Assembly (NCBI GenBank): GCA_016182385.1
Contig: JACPGV010000004.1
Span: 1 to 54,978 of the forward strand
Source of the DNA: Candidatus Moraniibacteriota bacterium
GTDB taxonomy: Bacteria > Patescibacteriota > Minisyncoccia > Moranbacterales > UBA1568
Direction of reading: 5' to 3'
DNA length: 54,978 nucleotides
Each line of letters starts with the position of its first letter. The first letter of the stretch is position 1. Below are positions 15,130 to 52,999 of this stretch, piece by piece. A program made the translations under genes and the position numbers. The notes under the pieces are model-generated. The model was given only the letters and a program-made list of their open reading frames with translations, was not told where the DNA came from and ran no database searches.

Positions 15130-16482
15130 TTACCGACAGCATTTATAGCTTGAGCTTCCACAAGAAAGACTGTTGTCTACTTGACCAGAGTCGCAATCAA
15201 GCCCCTGACTCACGCATGTTCCACCGACGTCTCGACAATATTTTGGTGGCATACAACAAGTATAGTTCGGGCTCCCACAAGAGGCATCGGCCTCTGTTTC
15301 GCCACTTCCACAACCACCACTTTCACAAATACCACCGATATCTCGACAAAGAACGGCGCTGGAATTTGATTGCCCGCTGGGAACACAACACACATACCCC
15401 GATCCGCCACACGCGCCGCTCGTTTGTGTCTCGTCACTTCTACAACCATCATTTGAGCATGCCCCCCGACACACACCGGAAAGAGCGGAGGGAGGAACAG
15501 GGCCGCTCGGATTGATACGGGAGGCCGTATTTTGCAAATTACCCAACGACAACCCACCCGGACCAGTGATAGAGCTTATCTGACCAAGCTGAGAGTTGAT
15601 TTGTGATGTCACGTTGCCTATCTCTCGCTGAATATTAGCCTGAATTTGTCCAATACCCTTTTGCACGAGATTATTAATCATCTTATTGGCCATACCGGTA
15701 ATAACTCCCGAGAGAAGTTCTCCGGGATTTTGCGCGGCGGCAATGATTTGATTCGGTATATTTTGCACGCTGGTGACCAATCCTTCAATCGCGGCCGCAG
15801 GCGTTGTCACCATACCATTTTGTTCAGAAGGCAAAAACCCGGATGATTGAGCCTTCGTAACGGCTATCTCCCGCTCCATGGCGAGCTTTCCTTGATACGC
15901 TCCCTCGGCCTCAAGCACATAACCGTAAGGGTTGTTGGCTGGGTTAGAGAAAAACGCGTTAAACGCTCGAAAATCACCTTCAGCAAACATCGTTTCCGGA
16001 TTTGCCGTGTATTGATCAAGATCATATGTCTTTGGACCGCCACTTTCTATGGTCGCTTCTTTGGCGGCGGACACAAGGTATGACTGATAATTTCCACCGA
16101 TGCCACCACTATCACCAACAGCCACATAATTCGCTGACGAAGACTGTCCGCGCGTTGTCAAAGTAAAGAAATCATTCATATACAATTCCGCGCGCTGTTT
16201 CGGTCCCTGATAAAGAAAGTCATTGAAGTCCGTAATAAAAAGCGCTTGTCCCACTGACGCACCACCAACGAGCTGTCCCACCTGACTATTAAGCATCTGT
16301 GTCGCGGCAAGTTTCAAAGATCCAAGCATGACCCCCTCTATCGATCTCTGTATTCTTTCCATCATCTGTTGTACCATAACCGCAATCAAATTTGCTCCCC
16401 ATGTATCAGCCCTCACTGTCCGCAGAGGTGCAAATGACAACGCCAACACAAAAACAATCGTTACCAAAAAACGAGTTACCAT
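15130..16482 (-). CDS. secreted protein with three C-terminal six-cysteine modules
   Basis: Start set at the ATG at 16482, which gives the signal peptide MVTRFLVTIVFVLALSFAPLRTVRA. The track start at 16557 overlaps the upstream gene. The C-terminal 113 aa hold three C..C..C..C..CC modules. Confidence 0.65.
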   Translation of the reverse strand: MVTRFLVTIVFVLALSFAPLRTVRADTWGANLIAVMVQQMMERIQRSIEGVMLGSLKLAATQMLNSQVGQLVGGASVGQALFITDFNDFLYQGPKQRAELYMNDFFTLTTRGQSSSANYVAVGDSGGIGGNYQSYLVSAAKEATIESGGPKTYDLDQYTANPETMFAEGDFRAFNAFFSNPANNPYGYVLEAEGAYQGKLAMEREIAVTKAQSSGFLPSEQNGMVTTPAAAIEGLVTSVQNIPNQIIAAAQNPGELLSGVITGMANKMINNLVQKGIGQIQANIQREIGNVTSQINSQLGQISSITGPGGLSLGNLQNTASRINPSGPVPPSALSGVCRGACSNDGCRSDETQTSGACGGSGYVCCVPSGQSNSSAVLCRDIGGICESGGCGSGETEADASCGSPNYTCCMPPKYCRDVGGTCVSQGLDCDSGQVDNSLSCGSSSYKCCR

Positions 16483-16525
16483 AAATTTCCGTGATGAAGA
16501 TTTTTTTTGTTTCACAAGAAAAAAA

Positions 16526-17524
16526 TTATAAATCCAAAGGAATTTCTTCAATCTCATAATCAGCCAACTTCTTATTTATCTCATCAACAAATCCGAACGC
16601 GCCAGCAATAAACCCCTGCATTTTTGAAAGCGCCTCTATCTGTCCCAGAGGATCTTCATCCGCCGGACGAAAATCTTTTTTTAATTCAACGGCATACCGA
16701 GCCATCTTCAAGGCCTTCACGTGAACATCAAGCATTTTTTCCGGTACTTCCACGTCTTTCAACTCTTCCAACATTTTTTCTCCGCGTTGCGACAAATCGT
16801 CAATATATTTTGCATTTCCAAGCGAGACGGCTGTAAGAGAATTGTCGGAAAGAGAAAAAAGTACTTTTTCCAAATCTTCATTCGTCCGAAATGTTTGCGG
16901 CATATTGTTTGCCATAAGGTACGACATAATTGTCAGATACTCCACCGCATACTCACGCTCTTTTTCTTTTCGTTTTTTTTCCTTAAGACTTTTTGCCACT
17001 TTTTTAATTTTTATATCTTTCAATTCAATTTCCGGCAACACCACTTCTTCATTCGAACTATTCAAAATCTTTTCTACCGTCATATCAATTTTTTCCAAAG
17101 AAATATCTTCTCCTTGTTCATGAGAGCGCTTCACCAAACGAGCAATCTCTCCGGAAACCTCTTCTGTTAAGTTTTCTTTTTCCGTACCACTCGTCGCTGT
17201 CGCTTTTGCTTCAGCTGTCGCCACGCTTTCTTTCGTCACTTTGTCTCCCGGTGCCCGCTTGAGTGGATTGTATCCACTTTCAATTTCTACTCCATCGCTA
17301 TACCCATCACCATCAGTATCTTTTTTGTGAGGATCGGTACCATAAAGTTTTTCTTCTTCATTACTCAAACCGTCCTGATCGGCATCTTGAAAAATATTTT
17401 TCGTGCTCAAGGTATCATCAGCAAAAACAAAAAAAGCCACACTAAAAAAAATGAGACTAAAAAAAATAAAAGTGGCACGCTCGAAAATTTTTATGGAAAA
17501 ATATCCGGCCAAGCTTTCTCGCAT
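16526..17524 (-). CDS. secreted protein with thrombospondin type-3-like calcium-binding repeats
   Basis: 332 aa. N-terminal hydrophobic helix, then DADQDGLSNEEEKLYGTDPHKKDTDGDGYSDGVEIESGYNP. Confidence 0.6.
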   Translation of the reverse strand: MRESLAGYFSIKIFERATFIFFSLIFFSVAFFVFADDTLSTKNIFQDADQDGLSNEEEKLYGTDPHKKDTDGDGYSDGVEIESGYNPLKRAPGDKVTKESVATAEAKATATSGTEKENLTEEVSGEIARLVKRSHEQGEDISLEKIDMTVEKILNSSNEEVVLPEIELKDIKIKKVAKSLKEKKRKEKEREYAVEYLTIMSYLMANNMPQTFRTNEDLEKVLFSLSDNSLTAVSLGNAKYIDDLSQRGEKMLEELKDVEVPEKMLDVHVKALKMARYAVELKKDFRPADEDPLGQIEALSKMQGFIAGAFGFVDEINKKLADYEIEEIPLDL

Positions 17525-17973: not shown

Positions 17974-19968
17974 CTATTTGTCAATATTATCCTTTCTTGC
18001 TGTTGCCGCTATAATTCCACATAAAATCCAGAAAAGCAGTTGTCCCTGTTGAATATCCCAAAAATAATGATCGAATAAAGCAAGACCAAAAATCATTATC
18101 CATAAAGTAACCGATAGTTTTTTCATAAATGTTTCACGTGAAACATTTTCTACATTAATTAATCTATTTTGTTTCACGTGAAACATATTTTCTGTTTGAT
18201 TTTCTTTATTATCAAACTTTTCAATAAAAAAGTTTACATTAAATACATCTTTTAAAAAACTATAAATCGATGTTTCACGTGAAACATTTAAAATAAAAAT
18301 TCCCACCCAAAAAAGTAAAAATAACACGAGACCGATAAAGCCTAACTCAACAAAAACAAGTAAAAAAAGGTTATGTACTGGCTGAAATTGCCAATCAAAA
18401 AGCTTTTGATCAAAAAAACCTTGTAATAAATAAACAAATTGCCCAGAACCAAGACCTAAAAAGAAATTTTCTTCAAATATTTGTCCCACTGGCTTTAAAA
18501 GAAAAACCCTTTCGTTTATTGATTGCTTAATGAAATACTCTGTATTTACAATACTAAAAAAGAATACAATTACCAAAAAAATTACTAGTAAATGTTTCAC
18601 GTGAAACATTTGTATGGTCTCACTCATAAAAGAATAAAAAGGCTTTACACTTTTCTTTAAAAAAGTGAGGAATTGGTTGTTTTCTGATAATGTTTCACGT
18701 GAAACATTCTGATTTTCTTGTTTTTCTCTTAAAAAATGTTTCACGTGAAACATTGCATATATTTGTCCGAAAAGGAATAAGACCCCAAAACAAAACATGA
18801 TAAGTGCTGATTTAGAAAAAGTCGTAATAAGAGCAAAAATTTGCAAAAAGATAATTGCATAATAAATAAAATAGACGTAATTATGTTTCACGTGAAACAT
18901 TTTTATAAATCCTTTTATAAAAAGAATTATTTTTTGTACGGTATTACTAGAAAAATCAACAAGGTATTGATCTTGTCCACATGTTTCACGTGAAACATTT
19001 TTATAAAAATTAGTCTGATTTTGTTTCACGTGAAACATTTTTAATTTCTTTAAAAAAAGTAAAAATCCAAAAAATATAGAAATTATGCTTGTTATAGCCA
19101 AAAAAGCACCGAGAATATTTGGATGAGGAAAGGTTCCGTATGAGCGAACAAGCGTATTTTCATACAAAACAATTTTTGCTACACCGACCATTTCTTTTGA
19201 AAAAATGCTCTCTTGTAAAAAGGTTATACCTATCGATCCTTGATGAAAAAATTGACCTATCGCAATTATTGCTTCAAAAAGGCCTACTATTATAAAAATG
19301 ACTAGTACCCTCTCTGTTTTCGAGATTGGTATATAATGTTTCACGTGAAACATTTGTATCGTCTCACTCATAAAAGAATAAAAAGGCTTTACACTTTTCT
19401 TTAAAAAAGTGAGAAATTGGTTGTTTTCTGATAATGTTTCACGTGAAACATTCTGATTTTCTTGTTTTTCTCTTAAAAAATGTTTCACGTGAAACATTGC
19501 ACATATATTACGGAGAGTATATTTATTATTCTTTTCAATATTTTCTTCTTTTATTGTTTCACGTGAAACAATAAAAATAATTATCGCTACAAATACTAGA
19601 AAAAACTCAAAAAGTTTCAATGAAACAAATACACTTAAAATCTTGTTATCAGACCAAAGAAATGATAAGAATGACCAAAAACATATCAAAAATGGTAAAA
19701 AAATAATGAGAAACAAATGTTTCACGTGAAACATATTGGTCCACCATTCAATTGACAAAACATTATTTTTATTGTTTAATATAACAACGATTATAAAAAT
19801 GACCGCAATAATATCGGAGAAATATGTGGATACATCTGTATATTCATTAAATATACGCCTATTATCCACAAAAAAATCATGGTGTACCTTTCTTAAGGAA
19901 ATTGGCAAAGAAAAAAGAAGTGTGTAAAAAACAAGGTTCTCAAGTTTTTTCATGACATTACTTTCCAT
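17974..19968 (-). CDS. O-antigen ligase / Wzy-like polytopic membrane protein carrying palindrome-bounded inserts
   Basis: 664-aa ORF. It has many TM helices and a Wzy_C-like region (GLGSGQFVYLLQ ... QPVHNLFLLVFVELGFIGLVLF). It is interrupted by hydrophilic segments bounded by MFHVKH or VSRET peptides. Confidence 0.7.
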   Translation of the reverse strand: MESNVMKKLENLVFYTLLFSLPISLRKVHHDFFVDNRRIFNEYTDVSTYFSDIIAVIFIIVVILNNKNNVLSIEWWTNMFHVKHLFLIIFLPFLICFWSFLSFLWSDNKILSVFVSLKLFEFFLVFVAIIIFIVSRETIKEENIEKNNKYTLRNICAMFHVKHFLREKQENQNVSRETLSENNQFLTFLKKSVKPFYSFMSETIQMFHVKHYIPISKTERVLVIFIIVGLFEAIIAIGQFFHQGSIGITFLQESIFSKEMVGVAKIVLYENTLVRSYGTFPHPNILGAFLAITSIISIFFGFLLFLKKLKMFHVKQNQTNFYKNVSRETCGQDQYLVDFSSNTVQKIILFIKGFIKMFHVKHNYVYFIYYAIIFLQIFALITTFSKSALIMFCFGVLFLFGQIYAMFHVKHFLREKQENQNVSRETLSENNQFLTFLKKSVKPFYSFMSETIQMFHVKHLLVIFLVIVFFFSIVNTEYFIKQSINERVFLLKPVGQIFEENFFLGLGSGQFVYLLQGFFDQKLFDWQFQPVHNLFLLVFVELGFIGLVLFLLFWVGIFILNVSRETSIYSFLKDVFNVNFFIEKFDNKENQTENMFHVKQNRLINVENVSRETFMKKLSVTLWIMIFGLALFDHYFWDIQQGQLLFWILCGIIAATARKDNIDK
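18592..18757. repeat. 166-bp direct repeat, copy 1 (contains 3 palindromes)
   Basis: Collinear with 19336-19501 at a constant offset of 744 bp. I see 2 mismatches. Confidence 0.9.
19336..19501. repeat. 166-bp direct repeat, copy 2 (contains 3 palindromes)
   Basis: See copy 1. Both copies encode the identical peptide AMFHVKHFLREKQENQNVSRETLSENNQFLTFLKKSVKPFYSFMSETIQMFHVKH. Confidence 0.9.
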
Positions 19969-20060
19969 ACGTTCAGCGGTTCAGTCAATTATTTCCCATC
20001 ATGCATCACTTCATTATAACGAAACGGGCGTTTTTGTGAACTATGAGGGTTTTTTCATCA

Positions 20061-24410: not shown

Positions 24411-24851
24411 ATGCAGTATCTTTCAGTTTCTGAAATTGAATATGTAGCCCATACGCTTGCCAAAGAATTAATGTCTTGGAACGAACCCATTCCTGATTTT
24501 CAAAGCAGATATCCAAATAAACTCGAAGCCTGTTTAGCTGCTCCTCGACAGACTTTTGATAAAAAACAGCTCTATCCAAAAATTTACAGGAAGGGCTCAA
24601 TTTTGTTTTATCTTATAATCAAAGATCATCCCTTTCAAAATGGAAACAAACGCATAGCTATCATGGCATTACTGTATTTTCTTTATAAAAATGGGAGGTG
24701 GTTAAAAATTGATAACCAACAGCTCTACAACTTTGCTCGATGGGTAGCGGCAAGCGATCCGGCTGTCAAAGAGCAAGTCTTGGGTGCTATTTATGAAATT
24801 CTAAGAAAATACTCCGAAAATCGTAGTTTATCTCAAGAAAATCAGGAGTAG
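24411..24851 (+). CDS. doc: Fic/Doc-family toxin (death-on-curing type)
   Basis: 146 aa with HPFQNGNKRIA, which matches the Doc variant (HxFx[DN][AG]NKR) of the Fic motif. Confidence 0.8.
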   Translation: MQYLSVSEIEYVAHTLAKELMSWNEPIPDFQSRYPNKLEACLAAPRQTFDKKQLYPKIYRKGSILFYLIIKDHPFQNGNKRIAIMALLYFLYKNGRWLKIDNQQLYNFARWVAASDPAVKEQVLGAIYEILRKYSENRSLSQENQE

Positions 24852-24856
24852 TGATT

Positions 24857-24873
24857 GAGCAGGTAACGGGAGT
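24857..24873. repeat. displaced copy of the tRNA-Gly 3' end (att-like direct repeat)
   Basis: GAGCAGGTAACGGGAGT matches 34201-34217 (GAGCGGGTAACGGGAGT) at 16 of 17 positions, in the same orientation. Confidence 0.75.
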
Positions 24874-25195
24874 TCCGCATCGTTCATTCGTCGTCACTCA
24901 TTCACTCTTTGCCCGGGGTGGCGCCGAATGCTCATTTGATCGCATCCGTCGACGCTCGTCATCGCTTCCTTCCTACTGAAAGGAAGCTCGTCTCGCTTCC
25001 GCCCGTTCGACTACCGTTCACACCAACAAACTAAAAATCACCCCGGTTGGAGTGATTTTTAGTTTAGTGGAGCTGGGTAGTGAATGCGGTTAGAACCAAT
25101 TTTGTTAAAGATTTGACTGCCACGTTTAATCATTGAAAACACACCTAAAAAATAGTATTCTATAGAATACTGGGTATTGTTTTGGCATTAAGGAT

Positions 25196-26275
25196 ATGGG
25201 TAGGAAAAACCTTGGCAAAAAAGAAAGACCAACCGTGATTAGCTTGTACTCTGGTGCCGGCGGACTTGATGTTGGATTGGAACAAGCTGGCTTTGATGTC
25301 AGAGTCGCTCTCGATTTTGATCATGATAGTTGTGAAACACTCCGCACTAACTTTAAACACTCAGCTGTCATTGAAGGTGACGTAACAAAAATTACTTCAC
25401 AAGAAATCTTAAAAAATGGTGGACTCAAGAAAGGAGAAGTTGATTTACTGGTGGGAGGGCCTCCGTGTCAGCCGTTCTCAAAATCTGCTTTTTGGAATGG
25501 ATCTAAGGGTTTAAAGGATCCACGAGCTGTTACACTACATGAATATATTCGCATATTAAAGGACTCAAAACCAAAGGCGTTTATTTTGGAAAACGTTTTT
25601 GGTTTGGCTTATAAAAACAATCAGGACGCCTTTACTCTTTTGCGAGAAGGCTTTAAACAGCTTGGGTATGAAATCAATTGGCAGGTTATAAATACTGCTT
25701 CTTATGGCATTCCTCAGATACGGCAACGTTTGATTATACTTGGCTCACGAATTGGCCGTATTGAATTTCCACTGCCGACTCATCACGATCCAGCAGAAGA
25801 AGGAGAAAAAAATACTCTTTTCAAAAATGAGCTCCCTTGTTATGTAACAGCAAAAGAGGCGTTCAAAGGATTAAAAGAAGAGGGAGGGGAAGTCCCAACA
25901 GAATTAAAAGTTGGTGGTAAATGGGGTCATTTACTAGCAGAAATTCCTCCAGGTGACAATTACCTTTATTACACAGAGAAAAGGGGTCACAAAAACCCAT
26001 TATTTGGATGGAGATCACGCTATTGGTCATTCCTTCTCAAACTCTCTCCAAATAAACCATCGTGGACTATTCAAGCCCAGCCAGGACCTTATGTGGGACC
26101 TTTCCACTGGGATAACCGCAGACTAACACTTGGGGAAAGAAAAAGAATCCAAACATTTCCAGACAATTACATCTTTGTTGGCAAGAAAGGATCTGTTCAA
26201 AAACAAATAGGAAATGCTGTCCCATGTCTCCTTGGCAAGGTTTTAGGAGAGGCAATAAAAAAACAAGTGCTTTAA
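25196..26275 (+). CDS. DNA (cytosine-5)-methyltransferase
   Basis: 359 aa. Motif I LYSGAGGLDVG, motif IV GGPPCQPFS, motif VI ENV, motif VIII QIRQRLIILG, motif X IGNAVP. Confidence 0.9.
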   Translation: MGRKNLGKKERPTVISLYSGAGGLDVGLEQAGFDVRVALDFDHDSCETLRTNFKHSAVIEGDVTKITSQEILKNGGLKKGEVDLLVGGPPCQPFSKSAFWNGSKGLKDPRAVTLHEYIRILKDSKPKAFILENVFGLAYKNNQDAFTLLREGFKQLGYEINWQVINTASYGIPQIRQRLIILGSRIGRIEFPLPTHHDPAEEGEKNTLFKNELPCYVTAKEAFKGLKEEGGEVPTELKVGGKWGHLLAEIPPGDNYLYYTEKRGHKNPLFGWRSRYWSFLLKLSPNKPSWTIQAQPGPYVGPFHWDNRRLTLGERKRIQTFPDNYIFVGKKGSVQKQIGNAVPCLLGKVLGEAIKKQVL

Positions 26276-26943
26276 GCCCTCCTTTCTCCTCGTCTAGGTA
26301 TTCCTGCCCAAAACTTGTAGAATTCTTTCTGAGTTCGAAATACCCCGCCTTTTTCTTCTCGGATTTTATCAATTTCCATTACCGCACCCACATAATCTCT
26401 AGTGGCGCTTGATAGTGTTTTGGAAGCTACTTTCCAAGGTTCTACAATGAGTATTTCAAAGTTTGTGACACTCTTTTCCGTGTTGTTTACATCAAAAACA
26501 ACAATGAGATCAAGGTGATGCGCATAGTCCTGAAAAGGTCGTATGGTCTGAGGAAATTTTTTGTCCTGACACTTCAAATATGTCCCAAAAGTATACAGGG
26601 TTATTCTAGACTGAGTTCTGTTTGGATTGCGCTCATTTCGGCGTGCTGCCTTAATGTCAAAGGCAATTACCTTGTTGTCAAACAAGGAACCAGACAACTC
26701 GATATCGGGGTAATACCGATTTCCTCCTTCTACTGCCGCAGCGTCTTTTCTCCCGTTGAGCTTTTCATGCAAGTGTGCAATTAAAACACCCTCTATTACA
26801 TTACCTAGCGTACCTGGTTCAAGGTTGAGAGGAATAACTTTCCCTTGCTTAGTGGCAAATCCGATGATATCAAAGTTAAAATCAGCATAAATGCTTTTAA
26901 GCCACTCCTTTACATCTTCAGCCGTAGTAAGACTCTTTGACAT
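26272..26943 (-). CDS. putative type II restriction endonuclease (PD-(D/E)xK)
   Basis: 223 aa, convergent with the methyltransferase; the stop codons overlap within TTAA at 26272-26275. YYPDIEL ... VIAFDIKAA fits a PD...(D/E)xK catalytic motif. Confidence 0.5.
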   Translation of the reverse strand: MSKSLTTAEDVKEWLKSIYADFNFDIIGFATKQGKVIPLNLEPGTLGNVIEGVLIAHLHEKLNGRKDAAAVEGGNRYYPDIELSGSLFDNKVIAFDIKAARRNERNPNRTQSRITLYTFGTYLKCQDKKFPQTIRPFQDYAHHLDLIVVFDVNNTEKSVTNFEILIVEPWKVASKTLSSATRDYVGAVMEIDKIREEKGGVFRTQKEFYKFWAGIPRRGERRA

Positions 26944-26954
26944 ACAATTTTATA

Positions 26955-27452
26955 TTAAATAACTCTACACTCCATCAAATGACGAGTAAGGGCTTCTTTG
27001 CTAACAGCATACCTCTTTGATAGTTCGTCAAGATTTTCGGTTTGTTTAAAATCTTGTTTAAGTCTTGCTAATGGCATCAGGAGTTCGGCTGCAAACTGGT
27101 GCGCCTCGGTCTCTTGCGGACTCCCTTTATCCACTGGATTACAGGTGTGCCCCATAAGCAAGTGTCCGATTTCATGAGAAATCGTGAATCTTCTCCGGTG
27201 CCAGTGTTGAGTATTGTTAAAACCAATTGTTGCCTCATCGCCGATCATGACAAGCATCCCAGACACTTTCTCGCTAAATCCATAACCATATATCTGAAGA
27301 TTTGTTTTTGTCTTCAAAAAATCCAGCACCTTTTGAAGGGATACTGGTAAATTTACGATTTTTGCATCCTTAAGTAACTTTCTAGCCAAGTTTCGCGCTG
27401 CCCCCTTCTGAGCCGTATTAACTATCTCATCCATGCCTCTTTTTCTTAGCAA
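26955..27452 (-). CDS. ImmA/IrrE-family zinc metallopeptidase
   Basis: 165 aa with HEIGHLLMGH (HExxH) in the usual ImmA/IrrE context. Overlaps the upstream XRE gene by 26 nt. Confidence 0.8.
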   Translation of the reverse strand: MLRKRGMDEIVNTAQKGAARNLARKLLKDAKIVNLPVSLQKVLDFLKTKTNLQIYGYGFSEKVSGMLVMIGDEATIGFNNTQHWHRRRFTISHEIGHLLMGHTCNPVDKGSPQETEAHQFAAELLMPLARLKQDFKQTENLDELSKRYAVSKEALTRHLMECRVI

Positions 27453-27762
27453 GTTCTATGAAATACATGATTGAGTCTTTATCCTTTTGGGATAAATCCT
27501 TGTCTGCTCGTAAAGCGAATTTCACATCAGGAGCCTTTTCTTCTTGGCCAAGAAAAAACTTGATATCTCGATGCAAAAAATTCGATATTTTCTCTAAATC
27601 CTCGACTCGGAGTTTCCTGCTACCTGATTCGATCAAGGAAATTGCCGTAGCAGATTCATAGCCGAGAGCCTCGGCAAGCGCAAGCTGGGATAACCCCTGA
27701 GACTCTCTAGCTTCACGGATTTTTGAGCCAATAAAAACGTTCTTGTCTATCTGATTTTTCAT
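27427..27762 (-). CDS. XRE-family helix-turn-helix transcriptional regulator
   Basis: 111 aa. IGSKIREARESQGLSQLALAEALGYESATAISLIESGSRKL is a canonical Cro/CI-type HTH. Confidence 0.85.
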   Translation of the reverse strand: MKNQIDKNVFIGSKIREARESQGLSQLALAEALGYESATAISLIESGSRKLRVEDLEKISNFLHRDIKFFLGQEEKAPDVKFALRADKDLSQKDKDSIMYFIELAKKKRHG

Positions 27763-27773
27763 AATGCAATAAT

Positions 27774-27801
27774 AGCCTTTTCAAAATGATTTGACAAGGC
27801 T
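27774..27801. promoter_or_regulatory. operator-like inverted repeat in the divergent XRE / rightward promoter region
   Basis: AGCCTTTTCA (27774-27783) and TGACAAGGCT (27792-27801) are reverse complements at 9 of 10 positions. The right arm overlaps the -35 hexamer. Confidence 0.45.
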
Positions 27802-27818
27802 TTTCATTCTGCTATACT
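27791..27818 (+). promoter_or_regulatory. near-consensus sigma70 promoter facing right
   Basis: TTGACA (27791-27796), 16-nt spacer, TATACT (27813-27818). Confidence 0.65.
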
Positions 27819-27824
27819 AATGTT

Positions 27825-28084
27825 ATCAAATCGGCAATTTGGTCGAGTCCACCGTTTTGAGGCTAACCAGTAAGCAGAACGGCCCCACACCACGCATATG
27901 CGTAAGTCACCGTGGCACTCAGTGAAACAGCCCGTATATCACGAAAATACGGAATGTAACACCGGGAACAACATCGAGCGAGAGAATCTTCGTCAGGGAA
28001 CTGGCGGGAAGCCTCTCTGCAAGGAATGCGAGCGGCTCCGCAAATAAAGCTCTCGTACACCAGACCGCCGAAAGGCGGTTTTGG
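27825..28084 (+). ncRNA. candidate structured non-coding RNA or leader (unknown class)
   Basis: About 260 nt between the promoter and a terminator. It looks GC-rich against AT-rich flanks and has no plus-strand ORF of 60 aa or more. Local hairpins include ACGCATATGCGT and CCGTAT-ATCACGAAA-ATACGG. Confidence 0.35.
28063..28084 (+). terminator. rho-independent terminator-like hairpin
   Basis: ACCGCC-GAAA-GGCGGT followed by TTTTGGT. Confidence 0.5.
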
Positions 28085-28491
28085 TATTAGTATATTCCAA
28101 GAAAATTACATGAGCAAATACGATAAAAGGTTTTGTCTAAAACCTTTTAAACCGAAGAATTGTTACGAACTCATATTTTGAGACAAACTTCATCCCGAGA
28201 CATGATTTTGTCCTCTAGCCATATATTTTTATGTCTTTTAGTCCTCCGTGTCTCTCGGAATGATCTAGACGGCTCTAGGAATGTTTAGGAAACCACATAT
28301 AAGGTAGTTTTTGGCTTTTTAAGACTCAAAAATACTTGAGTAAACACATGGATTGGCTTTAGATAAATCCTTTTTTCACGAAAAATTGTCACGCACCCAT
28401 GAGAGGAATGTAAAAAAGACCGCTCGAACAGTGAGAAGTCTTATTTTGTTGAATTTTTGAGTCAAAACACCGTTTTTGTTTCAGGTAAAGC

Positions 28492-28779
28492 CTAGTTTGT
28501 AGAGAATATATAAACCAGGAAACCGCCCCAAATCAAAAGATCGTATACAGCTATCCTTTCCGCCTTCTTGGCTTTTTCTACCGTTTTTATGTTCGTGCTC
28601 ATTTTTGCACGCGGAGCATAGCGAAAAGGAACCATGATAAGTAATGGAATTATCAGTGCGAAATTCGCCGAGAGATACGCATCCTTCGCAAACTTCTCCA
28701 TCTGCTCTTCTGAATATGCTTTCGTACCAGCGCCGGATCCGGCCTCGAATACTGAGGCAATCCTTTCAATTATACTCAT
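28492..28779 (-). CDS. hypothetical small membrane protein
   Basis: 95-aa ORF with two hydrophobic segments (ANFALIIPLLIMVPF, LLIWGGFLVYIF). Confidence 0.4.
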   Translation of the reverse strand: MSIIERIASVFEAGSGAGTKAYSEEQMEKFAKDAYLSANFALIIPLLIMVPFRYAPRAKMSTNIKTVEKAKKAERIAVYDLLIWGGFLVYIFSTN

Positions 28780-28789
28780 AATTGTTTAC

Positions 28790-29155
28790 TTAAGAATTAG
28801 TCTTGATCTGATTTGACTTGTAGTAATGGAAGCCGAACCCGATACCAAGCAACATCGTGAAAGGGGCAAGATTCTTTATCCCTTCCAAATCCTCGAGAGT
28901 TGCTTCAGAAAACGAAAGGTGGCGAGATGGTTCATAAATATAATCTTCTCCGCCATTACATGTGTACCCACCAACTCTTGGATCATAATCCACGGACTGA
29001 CATGTTTTTGAAATTCCGCCCCTTAAAATACCTCCGTCAAAAATCGAGTGTTTGGCATTTGAAAAAAGGATACCAATCAGAAAAAGAGGCATATAAAAAT
29101 TGAATATCAAAATCGAATACAACAGACTTCGTTGCAGAGTCATTTCTTTCTCCAT
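28790..29155 (-). CDS. hypothetical small membrane protein
   Basis: 121-aa ORF with N- and C-terminal hydrophobic helices around a Gly/Cys-containing loop (CQSVDYDPRVGGYTCNGGEDY). Confidence 0.4.
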   Translation of the reverse strand: MEKEMTLQRSLLYSILIFNFYMPLFLIGILFSNAKHSIFDGGILRGGISKTCQSVDYDPRVGGYTCNGGEDYIYEPSRHLSFSEATLEDLEGIKNLAPFTMLLGIGFGFHYYKSNQIKTNS

Positions 29156-29230
29156 ATAAAAAGACGACCTAAACTATTTAAGTCGTCGTGACGTTCACTA
29201 TGTTCACACATTCACTTGAGTGGACGACCC

Positions 29231-29353
29231 GACGGGTACCACACTCAAAAAGCACCGAAATGCCTCATCATGTGCGCCGAGCCGCCCGCTAAAGGGCGTG
29301 ATGAGGCAAAAAACCGAATAAAAATTCGGTGCACTATTGAGTATGGTACCGTC
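29231..29353. other. 123-nt rod-like imperfect hairpin (candidate origin/priming site or ncRNA)
   Basis: Nested helices. 29231-29247 pairs with 29338-29353 (15 bp with one bulge and one mismatch). GCACCGAA 29252-29259 pairs with TTCGGTGC 29325-29332. GCCTCATCA 29262-29270 pairs with TGATGAGGC 29299-29307. CGCCC 29283-29287 pairs with GGGCG 29294-29298. Confidence 0.6.
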
Positions 29354-29439
29354 TATAAAGTAATACGAATTTCGATAAAAGTAAACGATCCTTCTCTTGA
29401 TTTGAGCGTCTGCTAGGAGTAGTCTGTGAAGAAAGCTTT

Positions 29440-30321
29440 ATGTACGCGAGAATTTCAGAACAAGACTATATCCTGATCCGAAGGTTGGAATCAGGAACAG
29501 CAATAGAGAAGCGTTTTGCCGAGATTTTCAAGGAAGTCTTGATCGATCTTGATTTTAGGGATTTTGTCTCCCATGCGAGAAAGAGGTTAAAAATTCCTGA
29601 GAACGGAATTAGCAACGACAGGCGATCTGCGAGTCTCCTTGATAAATGCCTGATGCCGGGAGGAATTACTGATGGTCAATACGTCTACAGACCCTACATA
29701 TCTTTAGATGAACTCTGTGTTGGATATGATAATGCAATAGATGAATTCCTGGAAAAAAAGTCATGGTACGGGCTGGACAGAAAGTATTACTATCACAATT
29801 TTTACTCTATTGGCAGCCTATCTTTCGCAATAAGGGAGTATATCTTGACAGGAGACGTCGTCCCTTCAGAGACTGAAATGGCTTGTATATCAAGGACTTT
29901 TCATAAAGAATCGGATTTGGAAGAAATGAAAAAAGACCCCAAATTATACGAGGAAATGAAGAAAGATGGGATTGCGTCGTACGTCACAGATGAGTCAATT
30001 GAGATTTCTTTTTCTCCACATGTGACAAAAAAGGAACTCATCGAATATATCGAAAGTAATTGGAGGTATGTTCAGGAATTAAAGACGAATATCCTTGGAA
30101 AAATTCCCCAGAGAAGGATCAAATCTAGAAAGAATTTTTTTCGTGACTTATACATATTTCAAAAATACGAGGAGTTTAAGAAAACAATTCAACCAGGCGA
30201 ATATGCCGAAATTAAGGTTGGAACATTCTTAAGAAAAGAGTATGGGATGAACTTGGAAGACGGGACTATTCGCTCAATCGTAAGCAGGACTCGTAAACTT
30301 GTTTCAAATAAGAAGGGGTAG
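29440..30321 (+). CDS. hypothetical protein (island-encoded)
   Basis: 293-aa ORF followed by a clean terminator. No motif recognised. Confidence 0.55.
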   Translation: MYARISEQDYILIRRLESGTAIEKRFAEIFKEVLIDLDFRDFVSHARKRLKIPENGISNDRRSASLLDKCLMPGGITDGQYVYRPYISLDELCVGYDNAIDEFLEKKSWYGLDRKYYYHNFYSIGSLSFAIREYILTGDVVPSETEMACISRTFHKESDLEEMKKDPKLYEEMKKDGIASYVTDESIEISFSPHVTKKELIEYIESNWRYVQELKTNILGKIPQRRIKSRKNFFRDLYIFQKYEEFKKTIQPGEYAEIKVGTFLRKEYGMNLEDGTIRSIVSRTRKLVSNKKG

Positions 30322-30356
30322 CTTAAAAGCAGTATTTCAACAAAGAAGATTCCTCG

Positions 30357-30383
30357 ATACTGGCAATATGCCAGTATTTTTTA
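30357..30383 (+). terminator. rho-independent terminator
   Basis: ATACTGGC-AATAT-GCCAGTAT followed by TTTTTT. Confidence 0.7.
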
Positions 30384-30394
30384 TTTTCTAACCT

Positions 30395-31018
30395 ATGCAA
30401 GAGAGAAAATCTCATGAGTTAGATGACGACGAGTTGTTTTTCGCTTCGCTCGAGTGGAAGCACGAATGGCGGCGAAGTCTCCCAAGACTCAGTGATAGAG
30501 AGTTGCTTGAGATTTTTCCAGTCTCAAAAGAAACACTCCAAGAGAAGCTCGCCGAGTGGCGAAGGCAGCGAGACATCGTAGCGCTCTCGATCAAGTCGGA
30601 CTGGCAGAAAGTCCCGAGGGAATATGAATGGTTTTTCAAGATACTGTTCGAGAAATGCCGTCTCTCTGAACTTCGTGAGATCGACCGACAAATAGCCAGA
30701 ATCAAAAGACTGCTTGCGATACTCGGTGGCCCAACGGACAAGCAAGGCCGTCGTTGGCAAAGCATGGCCGATCTCATCGCCGAAGCGAGAGTCTATCCGA
30801 TCTACGAATTCGCCAGGGATAAACTTGATCTCAAACCATCCGGAAAGAATTTCTTCGCTTTGTGTCCGTTTCACAATGAGAAAACCCCTTCTTTCTGCCT
30901 CTACACCGAAAGCAACCGCTTCCACTGCTTCGGTTGTCATGAAAAGGGTGACGTAATTAATTTAGCGATGCGTCTGTGCGGAGTCGGTTTCACCGAAGCC
31001 GTCCGGATGCTCCGATAA
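30395..31018 (+). CDS. CHC2 zinc-finger protein (DnaG-primase-type zinc finger only)
   Basis: 207 aa. The C-terminal CPFHNEKTPSFCLYTESNRFHCFGCHEKGDVINL is the CHC2 primase zinc-finger signature. I see no TOPRIM-like region. Confidence 0.7.
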   Translation: MQERKSHELDDDELFFASLEWKHEWRRSLPRLSDRELLEIFPVSKETLQEKLAEWRRQRDIVALSIKSDWQKVPREYEWFFKILFEKCRLSELREIDRQIARIKRLLAILGGPTDKQGRRWQSMADLIAEARVYPIYEFARDKLDLKPSGKNFFALCPFHNEKTPSFCLYTESNRFHCFGCHEKGDVINLAMRLCGVGFTEAVRMLR

Positions 31019-31022
31019 TCAT

Positions 31023-32369
31023 ATGTCAGATATAGAAAAAGATGTCGAGAAGCCAATCGAAATATCGTCAAAAGTATTCGATGACGGCACTATAGCCGAG
31101 ATGGTCTATGACCCGAAGGAAGGCACGACCGCTCTCATAACCTGCGGAGTCATGGGAGAAATCGAAACCAAGCAATCGTTCGAGCACCATGGAGTCGTTT
31201 ACAAGCCTCACTCGCCACACAAAGAAATCTTGCACAGCGGCGTGGTCCTCTTTCCGTCTGAACCAATAGAGTACGGGTCTCAAACCGAACTAGTACGAGA
31301 TATTCAAGCATTCATCCACAAGTATCTCTCGGTATCGCCGTTCTTCGAAAAGATAGCTAGCTACTACGCGCTCTTCTCGTGGATATACGACGACTTCAAT
31401 GAGCTGCCCTATCTCAGAGGGTTGGGCGATTATGGCACCGGCAAATCAAGACTGCTCCAAGTAGTCGGCTCGATCTGCTATACACCGATCTTCGCTAGTG
31501 GTGCCACTACTGTCTCGCCCATATTCCGCATTCTCAACGACTACAAAGGGACACTCGTTCTCGATGAGGCCGACTTCCGCTTTTCCGATACGACTGCTGA
31601 CATTATCAAGATTCTGAACAGCGGTTTCATGAAGGGTGTGCCGGTTATCCGGAGCGAAGCCAACGGAAAAAAGAGTTTTGACGTCAAAACATTCCAGGTA
31701 TTCGGCCCCAAGCTCATCGCCACGAGGCAGCTTTTCAAGGATACAGCGCTTGAAAGCCGGATGCTTACCGAAGACATGAACCTGAATTCACCGAGAGGCG
31801 ATGTGCCATTCAATATCCCAGACAGTTTTCGAGACGAAGCGCTCGAACTGAGAAACAAGCTGCTCATGTTCAGGCTCCGCAACAAGGGGGTGAGTCAGCT
31901 CAAGCCCGAGCTTGAAAATCGAGACATTGAACCACGGCTCAACCAGATCGCTGTTCCGCTCATGAGCATCATTGAGGATCAAGAGCTTGTCGCCGAGATT
32001 CAAAGCCACATCGCCGAGTACAACGAACGTATCAAAACCGACCGCACGCTGAACTACAACTACCAGATTCTCGACGCTATCTGCGCGTTATTGGATAACG
32101 GCTATTTCAAGCCGACGATCAAGCAGATAACCGACAAGTTCAATGAAGGGCTGAGCTATACGGAAACGACGACTTCCAAGAAGATGGGTTACCTGATCAG
32201 TAAAATCCTGTACCTCAGAACCGAAAAGACCAGAAACGGCTATGTGCTCTGCGAGGACAACAAGGAAAAAATCGAAATCCTACGAAAACGATACGGCATA
32301 GACAAGAACGGCGTGAACATCGTGAACAATGAGAACGTCTCCGAGGACATTCCTGTGGTGCCGTTTTAA
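31023..32369 (+). CDS. P-loop NTPase, putative replication helicase / primase-associated ATPase
   Basis: 448 aa. Walker A GDYGTGKS and Walker B-like LVLDEADF. Sits next to the zinc-finger gene. Confidence 0.55.
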   Translation: MSDIEKDVEKPIEISSKVFDDGTIAEMVYDPKEGTTALITCGVMGEIETKQSFEHHGVVYKPHSPHKEILHSGVVLFPSEPIEYGSQTELVRDIQAFIHKYLSVSPFFEKIASYYALFSWIYDDFNELPYLRGLGDYGTGKSRLLQVVGSICYTPIFASGATTVSPIFRILNDYKGTLVLDEADFRFSDTTADIIKILNSGFMKGVPVIRSEANGKKSFDVKTFQVFGPKLIATRQLFKDTALESRMLTEDMNLNSPRGDVPFNIPDSFRDEALELRNKLLMFRLRNKGVSQLKPELENRDIEPRLNQIAVPLMSIIEDQELVAEIQSHIAEYNERIKTDRTLNYNYQILDAICALLDNGYFKPTIKQITDKFNEGLSYTETTTSKKMGYLISKILYLRTEKTRNGYVLCEDNKEKIEILRKRYGIDKNGVNIVNNENVSEDIPVVPF

Positions 32370-32390
32370 CCCAACGGATACCGCAAGTGT

Positions 32391-32573
32391 GTGCTTACCG
32401 AATCCGACATCAAGAAGTTTCAGACGCTCTACGAGCAAGAAACGGTCGAACAACTGTCTCCAGAAGAGGCTTTGGACTGTGTGGAAAGTCTGGTTGAGAT
32501 GATCCGCTCAGTCTACAAGCCGATCAAGAAAGACGACTTCGAGCCGTGTACAAGCCAAAAGAGCGGTATATAA
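32391..32573 (+). CDS. hypothetical small acidic protein
   Basis: 60-aa ORF with a GTG start, directly upstream of the recombinase. It could be a directionality-factor-like accessory, but nothing supports that beyond position. Confidence 0.3.
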   Translation: MLTESDIKKFQTLYEQETVEQLSPEEALDCVESLVEMIRSVYKPIKKDDFEPCTSQKSGI

Positions 32574-32605
32574 TCGCTCTTGTGCGTGCAAAATTATCTA
32601 CGCAG

Positions 32606-34210: not shown

Positions 34211-34273
34211 CGGGAGTCGAACCCGTATCTTGACCTTGGCAAGGTCACATAATAGCCGCTATACGATACCCGC
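34199..34273 (-). tRNA. tRNA-Gly (anticodon GCC)
   Basis: Reverse complement: acceptor GCGGGTA/TACCCGC, anticodon arm TGACC-TTGCCAA-GGTCA, T arm ACGGG-TTCGACT-CCCGT. CCA is encoded. Confidence 0.9.
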
Positions 34274-34282
34274 GTTCTTTTG

Positions 34283-34354
34283 TGGGACTGGTTGGAATCG
34301 GACCAACGACCAAGCGGTTATGAGCCGCGCGCTCTACCACTGAGCTACAGTCCC
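34283..34354 (-). tRNA. tRNA with CAT anticodon (elongator Met or Ile2/lysidine)
   Basis: Reverse complement: acceptor GGGACTG/CAGTCCC, anticodon loop CTCATAA, T arm GTTGG-TCCGATT-CCAAC (unusual C at position 55). The 1-72 pair is G-C, so it is not a bacterial initiator. Confidence 0.8.
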
Positions 34355-34416
34355 GAGAGCCAAAACAGCCATTTTTCCACATTATACACACGATATACAC
34401 TCTTTTCTTCTTTCTG

Positions 34417-34488
<72 letters not shown>

Positions 34489-34497
34489 TTTTTTTGG

Positions 34498-34529
34498 CTT
34501 GCTCACCACGGTGCGTGCTTGGGGACTCG
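34498..34529 (-). pseudogene. duplicated 3' fragment of tRNA-Val(TAC) plus its downstream flank
   Basis: 34498-34529 matches 34620-34651 with 2 mismatches over 32 nt. This covers 14 nt of flank plus the last 18 nt of the tRNA. Confidence 0.8.
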
Positions 34530-34633
34530 GTCACGAGTTTCGCTTCGCGAACTCTCGACCCCGCCTCGCGGCTTTGCAGCGCTCCGGCCTTCTCGTCCCT
34601 GCGCAAGTCGAGCAGTCGACTTGCTCACCACGG

Positions 34634-34707
34634 TGCGTGCTGAGGGACTCGAACCCCCGACCCTCTCGGTGTAAACGAGATGCTCTAACCAACTGAGCTA
34701 AGCACGC
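34634..34707 (-). tRNA. tRNA-Val (anticodon TAC)
   Basis: Reverse complement: acceptor GCGTGCT/AGCACGC, anticodon arm TCTCG-TTTACAC-CGAGA, T arm GGGGG-TTCGAGT-CCCTC. Confidence 0.9.
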
Positions 34708-34755
34708 TATCCGAAGAGTAAAATTAAAACACCAAAACTCTCTTCATTCGTTTTG

Positions 34756-34839
34756 TGCCCAGGAGAGGACTCGAACCTCCAATCCCTTGCGAGAACTAGC
34801 ACCTCAAGCTAGCGCGTATACCAATTCCGCCACCTGGGC
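34756..34839 (-). tRNA. tRNA-Leu (anticodon GAG)
   Basis: Reverse complement: class II tRNA, acceptor GCCCAGG/CCTGGGC, anticodon arm CTAGC-TTGAGGT-GCTAG, long variable arm, T arm GGAGG-TTCGAGT-CCTCT. Confidence 0.85.
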
Positions 34840-41722: not shown

Positions 41723-41776
41723 TGAGTAATCGCAAAATATACCCTCTCTGTGATATACTGTTTACAGAGATTGTCT

Positions 41777-51027: not shown

Positions 51028-51165
51028 TTATACCGTAAGTCGTTTTCTTCCTTGTCTTCGTCGACGAGCCACAACTTTTTTTCCGCCAACCGTGCTCATC
51101 CGCTCCAAAAAACCATGACGTCGCGTGCGTTTTCTTGTTTTTGGCTGATATGTTCTTTTTGGCAT
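51028..51165 (-). CDS. rpmH: 50S ribosomal protein L34
   Basis: Not in the ORF track because it is under 60 aa. My translation of the minus strand is [45 protein letters not shown], 45 aa, the canonical L34 pattern. Confidence 0.9.
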
Positions 51166-51268
51166 ACACTAAAAATTTATATAATTTACCATTATCAAAG
51201 CGTTTCTTTAGTGTATCAGTATTTATAAAAAAGTCAATATTGAAGCCTTTTATTAAGTTATGCACGGC

Positions 51269-51277
51269 TTATCCACC
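51269..51277 (+). promoter_or_regulatory. DnaA box upstream of dnaA
   Basis: TTATCCACC, 8 of 9 matches to TTATCCACA, in the rpmH-dnaA intergenic region. Confidence 0.5.
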
Positions 51278-51350
51278 CTTTATAAACTTTTTGATTATAG
51301 ACCCATTATTTCAGTGGTGTTATAATACATTTCACTGTTTTATACACCCT

Positions 51351-52784
51351 ATGACCAACGAAGAATTGTGGCGGGCTGTCCTTGGCCAAATCGAGCTTTC
51401 TATCTCAAAAGCAAACTTTATTACTTGGTTTAAAAATACCAGCATCCTTAATAATCAGGATGGTTGTGTTGTTATAGGCGTACCAAATGGTTTTGCTAAA
51501 GAGTGGCTTGAAAATAAGTATAATCTCTACATTCTTCGTGCCTTAAAAAGTTTTGATACCACTATTCATACCATACGCTGTGTTATATCTCAGGAAAAAA
51601 TTTCTCACCCAGCAATTCAAACCGTCGATGGTGTAAAAAATATTGACGCCATCCAAGCACCAGAACAAAGTGGTTTTACAAGAAAAAAAATTCTTGAAAA
51701 ACCGTCTTTTGGAGCTCAAATAAGCCATAATACTACATTCCACGAAACAAACCTGCATAGTCGCTATACTTTTGAAAATTTTATTGTTGCTGAAAACAAC
51801 GAACTCGCCCGTGCCGCCTGTTATGCCGTTTCTCAAAACCTCGGCTTGGTTTATAACCCTCTTTTTATTTATGGAGGCGTCGGTCTAGGAAAAACCCACC
51901 TTCTTCAGTCTATTGGAAATGAAGTAATGAAAAATTTTCCAGAAAAAAGAATAAAATATATCAATTCTGAGCGTTTTACTACGGAGCTTGTTGATTCAAT
52001 AAAAAATCAAAAAATTGATAAGTTTAAAGAGTATTATCAACAAATGGATCTTCTAATAATTGATGACGTTCAGTTTCTTTCTGGGAGAGAAAAAACCCAA
52101 AATGAGTTTTTTCATATTTTTAACGCACTTTATCAACTTGATAAACAAATTGTTATTTCCAGCGATCGCCCTCCCAAAGCCATCCCTACTCTCGAGGACC
52201 GCCTCCGCTCTCGCTTTGAGGGAGGGATGATTGTTGATATTAGTCGTCCAAACCTTGAAACAAGAATTGCTATTTTGGAATCAAAAATTCTTGAAAAGGG
52301 TGTCGTTCTTGATAAGGCCTCTCTTCATTTTATTGCTGAACATATAACCCAAAACATTCGAGAGCTTGAGGGCGCCTTAAACCGTGTTCTTGCTTTTTCA
52401 GAATTTCATAAAGTTCCCGCCTCCTTAGAAAACACTAAAAAAATACTCTCTCAACTTATAGAAAACAATAAAAAAAATATTAAATCGGATGATGTTTTTT
52501 CTGTTATTTGCTCCTTTTATGATCTTCAAAAAGAGGATTTAATTAAAAAAGGAAGAAAAAAAGAAATTGTTCATCCGCGACAAGTGATGATGTATCTTCT
52601 TCGCACAGAGCTTGAAATGCCTTTCTCTACTATCGGAGATCTTCTTGGTGGTCGTGATCACACAACCGTTCTTCATGCTTTTGAAAAAATTGAAAAAAAT
52701 AAAAATATCCACTCCCGTTTAAAAGAAGAACTCTCTTCTCTTTTGGAACGACTTTACTATTCTTCTGTGGATACCACTGTATAA
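51351..52784 (+). CDS. dnaA: chromosomal replication initiator DnaA
   Basis: Start at the ATG at 51351 (MTNEELWRAVLGQIE). Walker A GGVGLGKTHL, Walker B LLIIDDVQF, C-terminal DNA-binding GGRDHTTVLHA. The track start at 51135 adds 72 implausible residues. Confidence 0.92.
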   Translation: MTNEELWRAVLGQIELSISKANFITWFKNTSILNNQDGCVVIGVPNGFAKEWLENKYNLYILRALKSFDTTIHTIRCVISQEKISHPAIQTVDGVKNIDAIQAPEQSGFTRKKILEKPSFGAQISHNTTFHETNLHSRYTFENFIVAENNELARAACYAVSQNLGLVYNPLFIYGGVGLGKTHLLQSIGNEVMKNFPEKRIKYINSERFTTELVDSIKNQKIDKFKEYYQQMDLLIIDDVQFLSGREKTQNEFFHIFNALYQLDKQIVISSDRPPKAIPTLEDRLRSRFEGGMIVDISRPNLETRIAILESKILEKGVVLDKASLHFIAEHITQNIRELEGALNRVLAFSEFHKVPASLENTKKILSQLIENNKKNIKSDDVFSVICSFYDLQKEDLIKKGRKKEIVHPRQVMMYLLRTELEMPFSTIGDLLGGRDHTTVLHAFEKIEKNKNIHSRLKEELSSLLERLYYSSVDTTV

Positions 52785-52999
52785 ACGTCTTCTTTTATGA
52801 ATAACTTCTTAATAAAAAAATATTTATGTGTATATTTTTATAGTTTTTTATAAAATACGCTTTTTTTAAAAAAAATATTTTCTCTTATTTTAAAAAAAAC
52901 GCATAAAAAACCTCTTCGTAAAAAGAAAAACACCACTTATCCAAATATCCACACCTCTAATGATAATAATAGTTATAAATATATAAGATATTACTTATT
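52785..52999. promoter_or_regulatory. candidate oriC (dnaA-dnaN intergenic, AT-rich with DnaA boxes)
   Basis: Very AT-rich tract at about 52800-52920. Boxes TTATCCAAA (52937-52945) and ATATCCACA (52945-52953). A further inverted box, TGTGGATAC (52766-52774), lies at the dnaA 3' end. Confidence 0.55.

Follow-up and report, generated by a model that had tools for sequence, protein, structure and literature searches.

The window analyzed in the current work is a stretch of 54,978 nucleotides from a Candidatus Moraniibacteriota bacterium (NCBI GenBank assembly GCA_016182385.1, contig JACPGV010000004.1), in which 14 exact copies of a 16-bp palindrome, TGTTTCACGTGAAACA, are packed into a single gene for a polytopic membrane protein resembling WaaL. 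As judged from its base sequence, this palindrome is the consensus chromosomal parS, the centromere-like site for ParB/Spo0J, and the array very probably represents the origin-proximal chromosomal centromere of a Patescibacteria genome, carried in-frame by a conserved WaaL-like gene in segments that encode predicted cytoplasmic loops. The observations that carry this interpretation are the identity of the motif, its proximity to the origin, its confinement to one gene, its conservation across genomes, the signs of selection at the DNA level and the intactness of the encoded protein. Comparison of assemblies indicates that the arrangement recurs in many genomes of ultra-small Patescibacteria (CPR, for Candidate Phyla Radiation); no published description of it was found. 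The array and its host gene are positioned as follows:

18130..19733, no strand assigned: parS array of 14 consensus sites (exact matches; the rest of the window has none, and the string equals the parS consensus bound by ParB).
17974..19968, minus strand: host gene, WaaL/Wzy_C-like polytopic membrane protein of 664 aa (based on open reading frame, Pfam match, alignment, AlphaFold2 model and PDB match).

Fourteen consensus parS sites within one open reading frame

An exact-match scan of the whole window retrieved TGTTTCACGTGAAACA at 14 positions between 18130 and 19733 (16-mer starts at 18130, 18170, 18271, 18593, 18691, 18737, 18884, 18982, 19022, 19337, 19435, 19481, 19555 and 19718), and zero further matches elsewhere, even when up to two mismatches were allowed. 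The number of matches expected by chance is 0.03, and none of 100 shuffled sequences reached 14. An earlier reading of the same DNA by a model (here referred to as the original prediction) had reported the 14 core copies, the counts of the 18-mer forms and the confinement of the copies within the window, all of which were reproduced here. The exact 18-mer ATGTTTCACGTGAAACAT is present in 11 of the 14 copies, while the 18-mers at 18169 and 19021 start with T instead of A and the copy at 19554 has the form TTG...CAA. The longest perfect palindrome is that of the copy at 19555, which spans 28 bp (19549-19576) and had been described as a 20-bp palindrome at 19553-19572; the 22-bp palindrome reported at 18129 was given its correct size, though it is not the only one, since the copy at 18593 also extends to 22 bp. 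Five others extend to 20 bp.

Successive sites are 40, 101, 322, 98, 46, 147, 98, 40, 315, 98, 46, 74 and 163 nt apart, an irregular series that lies entirely within the open reading frame (ORF) and that agrees with the previously noted 22-bp gaps (18129/18169 and 18981/19021) and 28-bp gaps (18690/18736 and 19434/19480). Helical phasing of the sites was considered and rejected, as the spacings follow no consistent multiple of ~10.5 bp. The ORF at 17974..19968 on the minus strand (664 aa) contains all 14 copies without interruption, as had been proposed. Translation yields MFHVK(H/Q) from eight of these copies and VSRET from the other six; no copy is in the third frame, where it would contain TGA, a stop codon in this genome.

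The parS consensus given in a review is TGTTNCACGTGAAACA (PMC7022226), and each of the 14 sites matches it exactly over all 16 bp. Among the matches listed, the publications that contain the exact 16-mer are all ParB/parS, Noc or origin-mapping papers. The statement of the original prediction that the motif has no described equivalent is therefore wrong, the string being a textbook parS consensus, whereas its alternative suggestion, in which a dimeric DNA-binding protein recognizes sites arrayed inside the gene, was essentially right. As a control, one genome per species was scanned for two parS sites located 6-36 bp apart, which yielded at least 120 loci from many phyla, mostly non-CPR, that were used to assess site density and linkage to ParB and do not constitute a census. 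At ~40 of the 116 non-CPR loci listed, an ORF with the ParB motif GERRxRA was located within 8 kb, which provides a positive control for the identity of the motif.

Conservation of the array in relatives

In the syntenic relative L001 (rbfA, DHH and udg on one side of the gene; TSP3, ftsH, tilS, gmk, S1 and gyrA on the other), 15 sites are present in an orthologue of ~30% identity, and the flanks on either side (±10 kb) are free of them. Loci L003 and L004 contain nine sites each, those of L003 being all inside the gene and none outside, and L002 contains seven sites inside the gene and one degenerate site outside. A metagenome scan seeded by two motifs unrelated to parS (YGxFPHPN and QPVHN) retrieved 80 loci, the closest 26 of which all possess parS sites (2-17 each), with none in distant Wzy_C paralogues. 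Of the 213 sites in these 80 loci, 201 are located inside ORFs and 12 within ~650 bp of an ORF end (one broken ORF accounts for seven of the latter); in the other ~700 kb of flanking sequence there is no parS site. With a threshold of E <= 1e-30, a full HMMER scan produced 4,762 cluster representatives. The best 150 were examined; 130 of these were new, and parS peptides are encoded by 126 of the new representatives (median 6, maximum 18).

Between proteins with 30-40% identity, sites coincide repeatedly in both alignment position and frame (reference positions 80, 134, 159, 174, 312, 422, 455, 596 and 609), with the caveat that identical parS peptides help to anchor the alignment. Many sites thus occupy aligned positions in distant orthologues, which indicates that they are ancient. 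Alignment with orthologues had been suggested as a means to recognize palindrome insertions; the outcome, sites at aligned positions, is the opposite of that produced by recent mobile insertion. Named members of the family are labelled ‘Patescibacteria group bacterium’, Candidatus Moranbacteria and ‘Parcubacteria group bacterium’, in agreement with the CPR-like host proposed from the sequence, and the view that the copies are accommodated in-frame in an unusual arrangement was likewise sound. The architecture was encountered among assemblies of NCBI, ENA, JGI and Logan, and is stable over more than 100 independent assemblies; because it is conserved across relatives it represents neither an artefact nor a recent insertion.

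Selection on the DNA and concerted evolution of the sites

Within the window a single DNA string is translated into two unrelated peptides (MFHVK(H/Q) and VSRET), with third codon positions being identical throughout. In genomes that carry the variant TGTTCCACGTGGAACA the third frame is free of stop codons, and three peptides are encoded, i.e. FHVE, VPRGT and CSTWN. A set of 229 CPR sites (those of the window and of CPR loci L001-L003, L095 and L125-L207) was inspected for sequence conservation beyond the 16-bp core. The palindrome extends in this set to A-W-[16]-W-T, with A at position -2 in 90% and T at position +17 in 82% of sites, and this extension is present in each reading frame separately. 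The CPR 20-bp form can consequently be written as A-W-TGTTYCACGTGRAACA-W-T, with A-rich and T-rich tracts beyond it. Considering that the flanks are independent of frame and that unrelated peptides are derived from one DNA string, these sequence comparisons argue that selection acts on the DNA and not on the peptide.

Nearly all sites within one genome share a single variant, either T..A or C..G. GC content was rejected as the cause of this choice, as both variants span GC contents of 0.29 to 0.45. A 172-nt module with three sites, bounded by parS, is present as two copies in different loops of the host protein; these copies are 98% identical, are located 744 nt (248 codons) apart and each specify the peptide AMFHVKHFLREKQENQNVSRETLSENNQFLTFLKKSVKPFYSFMSETIQMFHVKH, which thus occurs twice in the protein:

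18591..18762, no strand assigned: 172-nt module copy 1 (sites 18593, 18691 and 18737), family D2, loop residues ~403-460.
19335..19506, no strand assigned: 172-nt module copy 2 (sites 19337, 19435 and 19481), 98% identical to copy 1, loop residues ~155-212.

In the Parcubacteria relative L095 a three-site module is found in three loops. From these sequences the array appears to evolve in concert within a genome, with parS-bounded modules being copied between loops. Gene conversion or template switching from one site to another, or else co-evolution with ParB, may account for the uniform variants and the copied modules.

The host gene and its protein

The host gene has a GC content of 0.276, as compared to 0.415 for the whole window. 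In 500 shuffles of the region the longest ORF did not exceed 132 aa (mean 72), and the observed ORF of 664 aa is therefore not attributable to chance. Residues 463-551 match Pfam Wzy_C (PF04932) with 37.6 bits against a cut-off of 31.7, while none of the NCBIfam models matches the protein. An alignment of 34 relatives contains 20 invariant columns (including R275, Y277-G278, H282-P283-N284, R487, Q529-P530, H532 and D633-H634), none of which is located inside a parS peptide. When the parS peptides are masked, the core aligns with orthologues at 40-58% identity and the loops fail to align. The AlphaFold2 model of the protein (pLDDT 76, pTM 0.79) has as its best PDB match WaaL 7TPG (probability 1.00, TM-score 0.61 when normalized to the target, E = 2.8e-3, 8% identity), and its low-confidence stretches (residues 138-183, 209-212, 312-339, 410-415, 420-429 and 587-607) correspond to the loops that carry parS. 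Together, the family match and the structural model indicate that the host gene encodes a genuine WaaL/Wzy_C-like membrane protein with a predicted enzyme activity.

When the helices are read in order, all 14 parS peptides are positioned on one face of the membrane and all invariant residues of the loops on the opposite face, the latter including R275, H282, R487, H532 and D633/H634. Lysine and arginine account for 34 of 248 residues on the parS side and for 10 of 133 on the other side. The positive-inside rule and the analogy with WaaL would place the parS face in the cytoplasm, and all 14 sites would accordingly belong to predicted cytoplasmic loops or to the ends of transmembrane (TM) helices on that side.

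Two tandem Wzy_C paralogues of 405 and 425 aa are encoded at 43839-45053 and 45046-46320 (minus strand), within a glycan-synthesis cluster that adjoins jag-yidC-rnpA-dnaA, and contain zero parS sites; only the third and longer member carries them. The host protein is ~200 aa longer than these parS-free paralogues (664 versus 405 and 425 aa) through its expanded parS-bearing loops. Upstream of the host gene the following element was identified:

20013..20040, minus strand: promoter-like site TTCACA-16-TATAAT (11 of 12 matches; a consensus match only), 45 nt upstream of the ATG.

Genomic context and distance to the origin

The window is chromosomal and origin-proximal. The genes identified on it comprise pnp, gyrA, an rpsA-like S1 gene, gmk, tilS, ftsH, rbfA, a DHH phosphoesterase gene, udg, rplS, nrdAB, a glycan cluster, jag and yidC, and the origin is marked by dnaA and dnaN (53000-54154):

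51135..52784, plus strand: dnaA, replication-origin marker (Bac_DnaA, DnaA_N and Bac_DnaA_C domains).
52785..52999, no strand assigned: dnaA-dnaN intergenic region, candidate oriC (DnaA-box-like 9-mers at 52937 and 52945; GC content ~0.32-0.35).

The array is separated from dnaA by 31-33 kb, ~10 kb of which is occupied by an integrated element beside a tRNA cluster, and in the relative L147 dnaA is located 2 kb from the parS-bearing gene. The locus thus has the proximity to the origin that typifies chromosomal parS, its share of the genome length being an estimate. The array itself was considered as oriC and rejected, because it lacks a cluster of DnaA boxes (the gene contains one perfect box, at 19862, and a few with one mismatch) and because dnaA and dnaN are located 31 kb away. 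The dnaA ORF, if initiated at the TTG at 51135, encompasses 549 aa; an identical gene is called as 477 aa on L208 (6878-8311), and the true start is probably ~216 nt downstream, at ~51351, as judged from that comparison.

The window comprises its contig in full, and contigs from two independent runs stop within ~1-2 kb of both ends of the window, which suggests the presence of repeats there. Both dnaN and the polynucleotide phosphorylase (PNPase) gene are also present on contigs of run SRR12113422, which terminate at about the same places as the window. The region 24411-34839 is a probable integrated element adjoining a tRNA cluster (tRNAs at 34202-34839), with a GC content of up to 0.49. It specifies a Fic/DOC protein, a C5 DNA methyltransferase with an EcoRV-family restriction enzyme, an IrrE/M78 peptidase, a DnaG-type zinc-ribbon protein, a 448-aa P-loop ORF and a large serine recombinase that ends at the first tRNA; the syntenic interval of L001 contains different genes. 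At 15130-16557 (minus strand) a 475-aa protein without Pfam match is encoded; its N-terminal part includes a hydrophobic segment, and its C-terminal part contains three Cys-rich repeats (C..C...C......CG...Y.CC.P). It is adjoined by a TSP3-repeat protein (16526-17524), and in syntenic relatives the parS gene is likewise followed by a gene with TSP3 repeats. Just after nrdAB, at 41750-42688 (plus strand), lies the gene for a protein of 312 aa that contains the PF18895 domain (type IV secretion system pilin).

Comparison with known partition systems

The sites of the window share with chromosomal parS of the B. subtilis Spo0J/ParB type (TGTTNCACGTGAAACA) the same 16-bp palindrome, an origin-proximal location and a multicopy nature. 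An intragenic location is not foreign to this type, the first B. subtilis parS, of Lin and Grossman in 1998, reportedly being situated inside spo0J. In model species between one and ~10 sites are scattered over tens to hundreds of kb, in contrast to the 14 perfect sites within 1.6 kb of the window, which moreover all reside in one ORF, in the same gene family across many genomes, and without adjacent parAB. Reported numbers are 10 for B. subtilis, a cluster of four for P. aeruginosa and four for S. pneumoniae (PMC7022226).

Site density exceeds four per 2 kb at only three of the 116 non-CPR parS-pair loci listed, the other 113 having four or fewer. The denser control loci are L095, a Parcubacteria locus whose gene is of the same family as the host gene, along with two low-GC loci of Bacilli type that have 44-bp tandem arrays near dnaX. 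At one of these (L089, 5922-7979, from a metagenome-assembled genome (MAG) labelled ‘uncultured Bacilli’) four parS sites recur at an exact 44-bp period upstream of dnaX and three more are located in the C-terminal linker of dnaX, where they are read as NVSRGT/VPRET; L039 (443-2293, from a Muribaculaceae-labelled MAG) has a near-identical dnaX and a similar array, and is probably mis-binned. Locus L108 (3246-5375, labelled as the archaeon Nitrosopumilus) combines a ParB ORF with four parS consensus sites at a GC content of 0.63, and probably represents bacterial contamination.

Dense parS clusters occur in Myxococcus xanthus and Streptomyces coelicolor (~20-24 sites) and in Corynebacterium glutamicum (10 sites). 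Such clusters resemble the array in that many ParB loading sites near oriC build one large partition complex, but they span ~10-200 kb with many genes and intergenic regions, unlike the single gene of the window. Dense parS arrays are therefore not unique to CPR, and what is new is their confinement to one conserved membrane-protein gene. Plasmid centromeres, such as sopC of F (12 repeats of 43 bp) and the parC iterons of R1, also display a high local density of partition-protein sites, each being an inverted repeat; they are tandem, non-coding and of fixed period, whereas the array of the window is irregular (40-322 nt), protein-coding and composed of the chromosomal consensus. As regards the host protein, it shares with the WaaL/Wzy_C family the Pfam Wzy_C domain, the best structural match (WaaL 7TPG) and the conserved loop motifs, and stands apart in having no NCBIfam match and in exceeding the parS-free paralogues of the window by ~200 aa through its parS-bearing loops.

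Evaluation of the centromere assignment and its alternatives

Several points weigh against the assignment of the array as a centromere. Neither a ParB nor a ParA gene is present in the 55-kb window, and in the CPR loci (~0.8 Mb around the gene in relatives) no match was obtained with a hidden Markov model built from 33 ParB ORFs or with the ParA Walker motif KGGxGKT. The literature consulted yielded no documentation of ParABS in Patescibacteria. One parS suffices in model species (PMC7022226), and 14 sites far exceed that need, so that their number alone is no proof of centromere function. Furthermore, the cytoplasmic assignment of the parS loops derives from our own reading of the topology together with the positive-inside rule. 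Considering that ParB was found neither in the window nor in the flanks of relatives, we infer binding of ParB to the array, and its role in segregation, by analogy, and assume a cognate protein. The GERR motif led to a single ORF of the window (26272-26943), which was rejected as a ParB candidate as it encodes the EcoRV-family restriction enzyme. A homology search with the conserved ParB core was uninformative for CPR, as the ParB names among the 120 matches listed belong only to Clostridia and one Vibrio record. The literature search likewise retrieved no publication that combines parS/ParB with Patescibacteria/CPR or O-antigen ligase, or that treats the encoded peptides as parS.

The lead favored by the original prediction, i.e. 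a new palindromic element accommodated in-frame and akin to a Rickettsia palindromic element (RPE), evaluated here as a mobile element that colonized the host gene, draws on a genuine likeness, since RPEs are also palindromic DNA tolerated in-frame in coding genes and add peptide segments to loops; the copies are in-frame, reside in loops that lengthen the protein by ~200 aa relative to its paralogues, and form multi-site modules that are duplicated between loops in the window and in L095. RPEs, however, are selfish repeats of ~100-150 bp distributed over many genes, whereas the present element is a 16-20-bp binding site found in one gene at orthologous positions. Its conservation is restricted to those 16-20 bp with otherwise unrelated flanks, and the 66-83% identity outside the palindrome core, in AT-rich sequence, is no evidence of a larger shared element. 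Zero copies were found elsewhere in the 55 kb or in ~700 kb of relatives' flanks, the sites occupy aligned positions in 30-40% identical orthologues, and the sequence is that of a known ParB site, so that this lead finds no support and an RPE-like origin is very unlikely. Somewhat less remote, though still improbable, is the possibility that the sites are operators for another CACGTG-binding regulator, or that ParB acts here mainly as a transcriptional roadblock or silencer of an envelope gene. Intragenic binding arrays can block transcription, ParB at parS represses nearby genes in P. aeruginosa (PMC7022226), and a promoter-like site is located just upstream of the host gene; yet the match to parS is exact over 16 bp and thus extends beyond CACGTG, the locus is origin-proximal, and an operator would be expected at the promoter rather than across 1.6 kb of coding sequence at positions conserved throughout a superphylum.

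Many identical palindromes in one envelope gene, together with a 172-nt module copied between loops, could also be taken as substrates for recombination that inverts or deletes segments and thereby causes phase variation of a surface-glycan enzyme, as had been proposed. This proposal fares even worse than that of a mobile element: no recombinase is adjacent (the nearest is the serine recombinase at 32546-34210, in a separate element), the ORF is intact with the same order of sites here and in more than 100 independent assemblies, and inversion between self-complementary sites would scramble the TM helices. The recurrence of the peptides MFHVKH and NVSRET at TM-helix boundaries might suggest that they are selected at the protein level with the palindrome being incidental, but two or three unrelated peptides are derived from identical DNA, including all third codon positions, and the symmetry of the flanks is independent of frame. 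Such selection, or an assembly artefact, against which the recurrence of the architecture across NCBI, ENA, JGI and Logan assemblies argues, is the least credible explanation of all and close to negligible.

Proposed mechanism

For an origin-proximal centromere, and by analogy with established ParABS systems, ParB dimers (a CTP-dependent clamp) would load at each of the 14 sites. The loaded clamps would close around the DNA, slide outward and form one dense partition complex ~31 kb from dnaA/oriC, which may mark the origin region so that ParA can segregate it and/or the SMC condensin can be loaded. With each site being read in a stop-free frame (MFHVKH or NVSRET), the enzyme core and the conserved loops on the opposite side of the membrane stay intact.

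A more speculative and, on balance, doubtful extension is that the embedding is itself functional and that Patescibacteria possess a dedicated ‘centromere gene’. Co-transcriptional translation and membrane insertion of the 12-helix protein could hold the ParB-parS complex, and thereby also the origin region, at the membrane, which would replace polar anchors such as PopZ, HubP or DivIVA/RacA; none of these turned up in the window or flanks, where no search was aimed at anchors. Alternatively, occupancy by ParB could gate expression of the envelope glycosyltransferase according to the state of replication or segregation. In a weaker version, the selected ORF would merely shield recombination-prone repeats from deletion in streamlined genomes. 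Compatible with these ideas are the observations that the polytopic membrane family is always the same, that the side is always the (predicted) cytoplasmic one, that positions are conserved and that parAB is never adjacent.

Implications

The parS/ParB system is the most widespread bacterial chromosome-segregation system, and studies of it come almost exclusively from cultured phyla, in which a few sites are scattered near the origin. The present finding points to a conserved and very dense centromere, with up to 17-18 sites in ~2 kb of one gene, in a large part of the Patescibacteria. It may serve as a sequence landmark for the origin-proximal region and the centromere in fragmented CPR bins. 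It also constitutes a natural case of dual coding, in which the same bases are under constraint from an array of protein-binding DNA as well as from a membrane protein, and in which frame usage can be read directly. For annotation it implies that MFHV(K/E)H, NV(S/P)R(E/G)T and CSTWN in CPR proteins would represent footprints of parS and not protein motifs. Finally, it provides a concrete locus at which chromosome organization and segregation may be addressed in ultra-small cells with minimal cell-cycle machinery.

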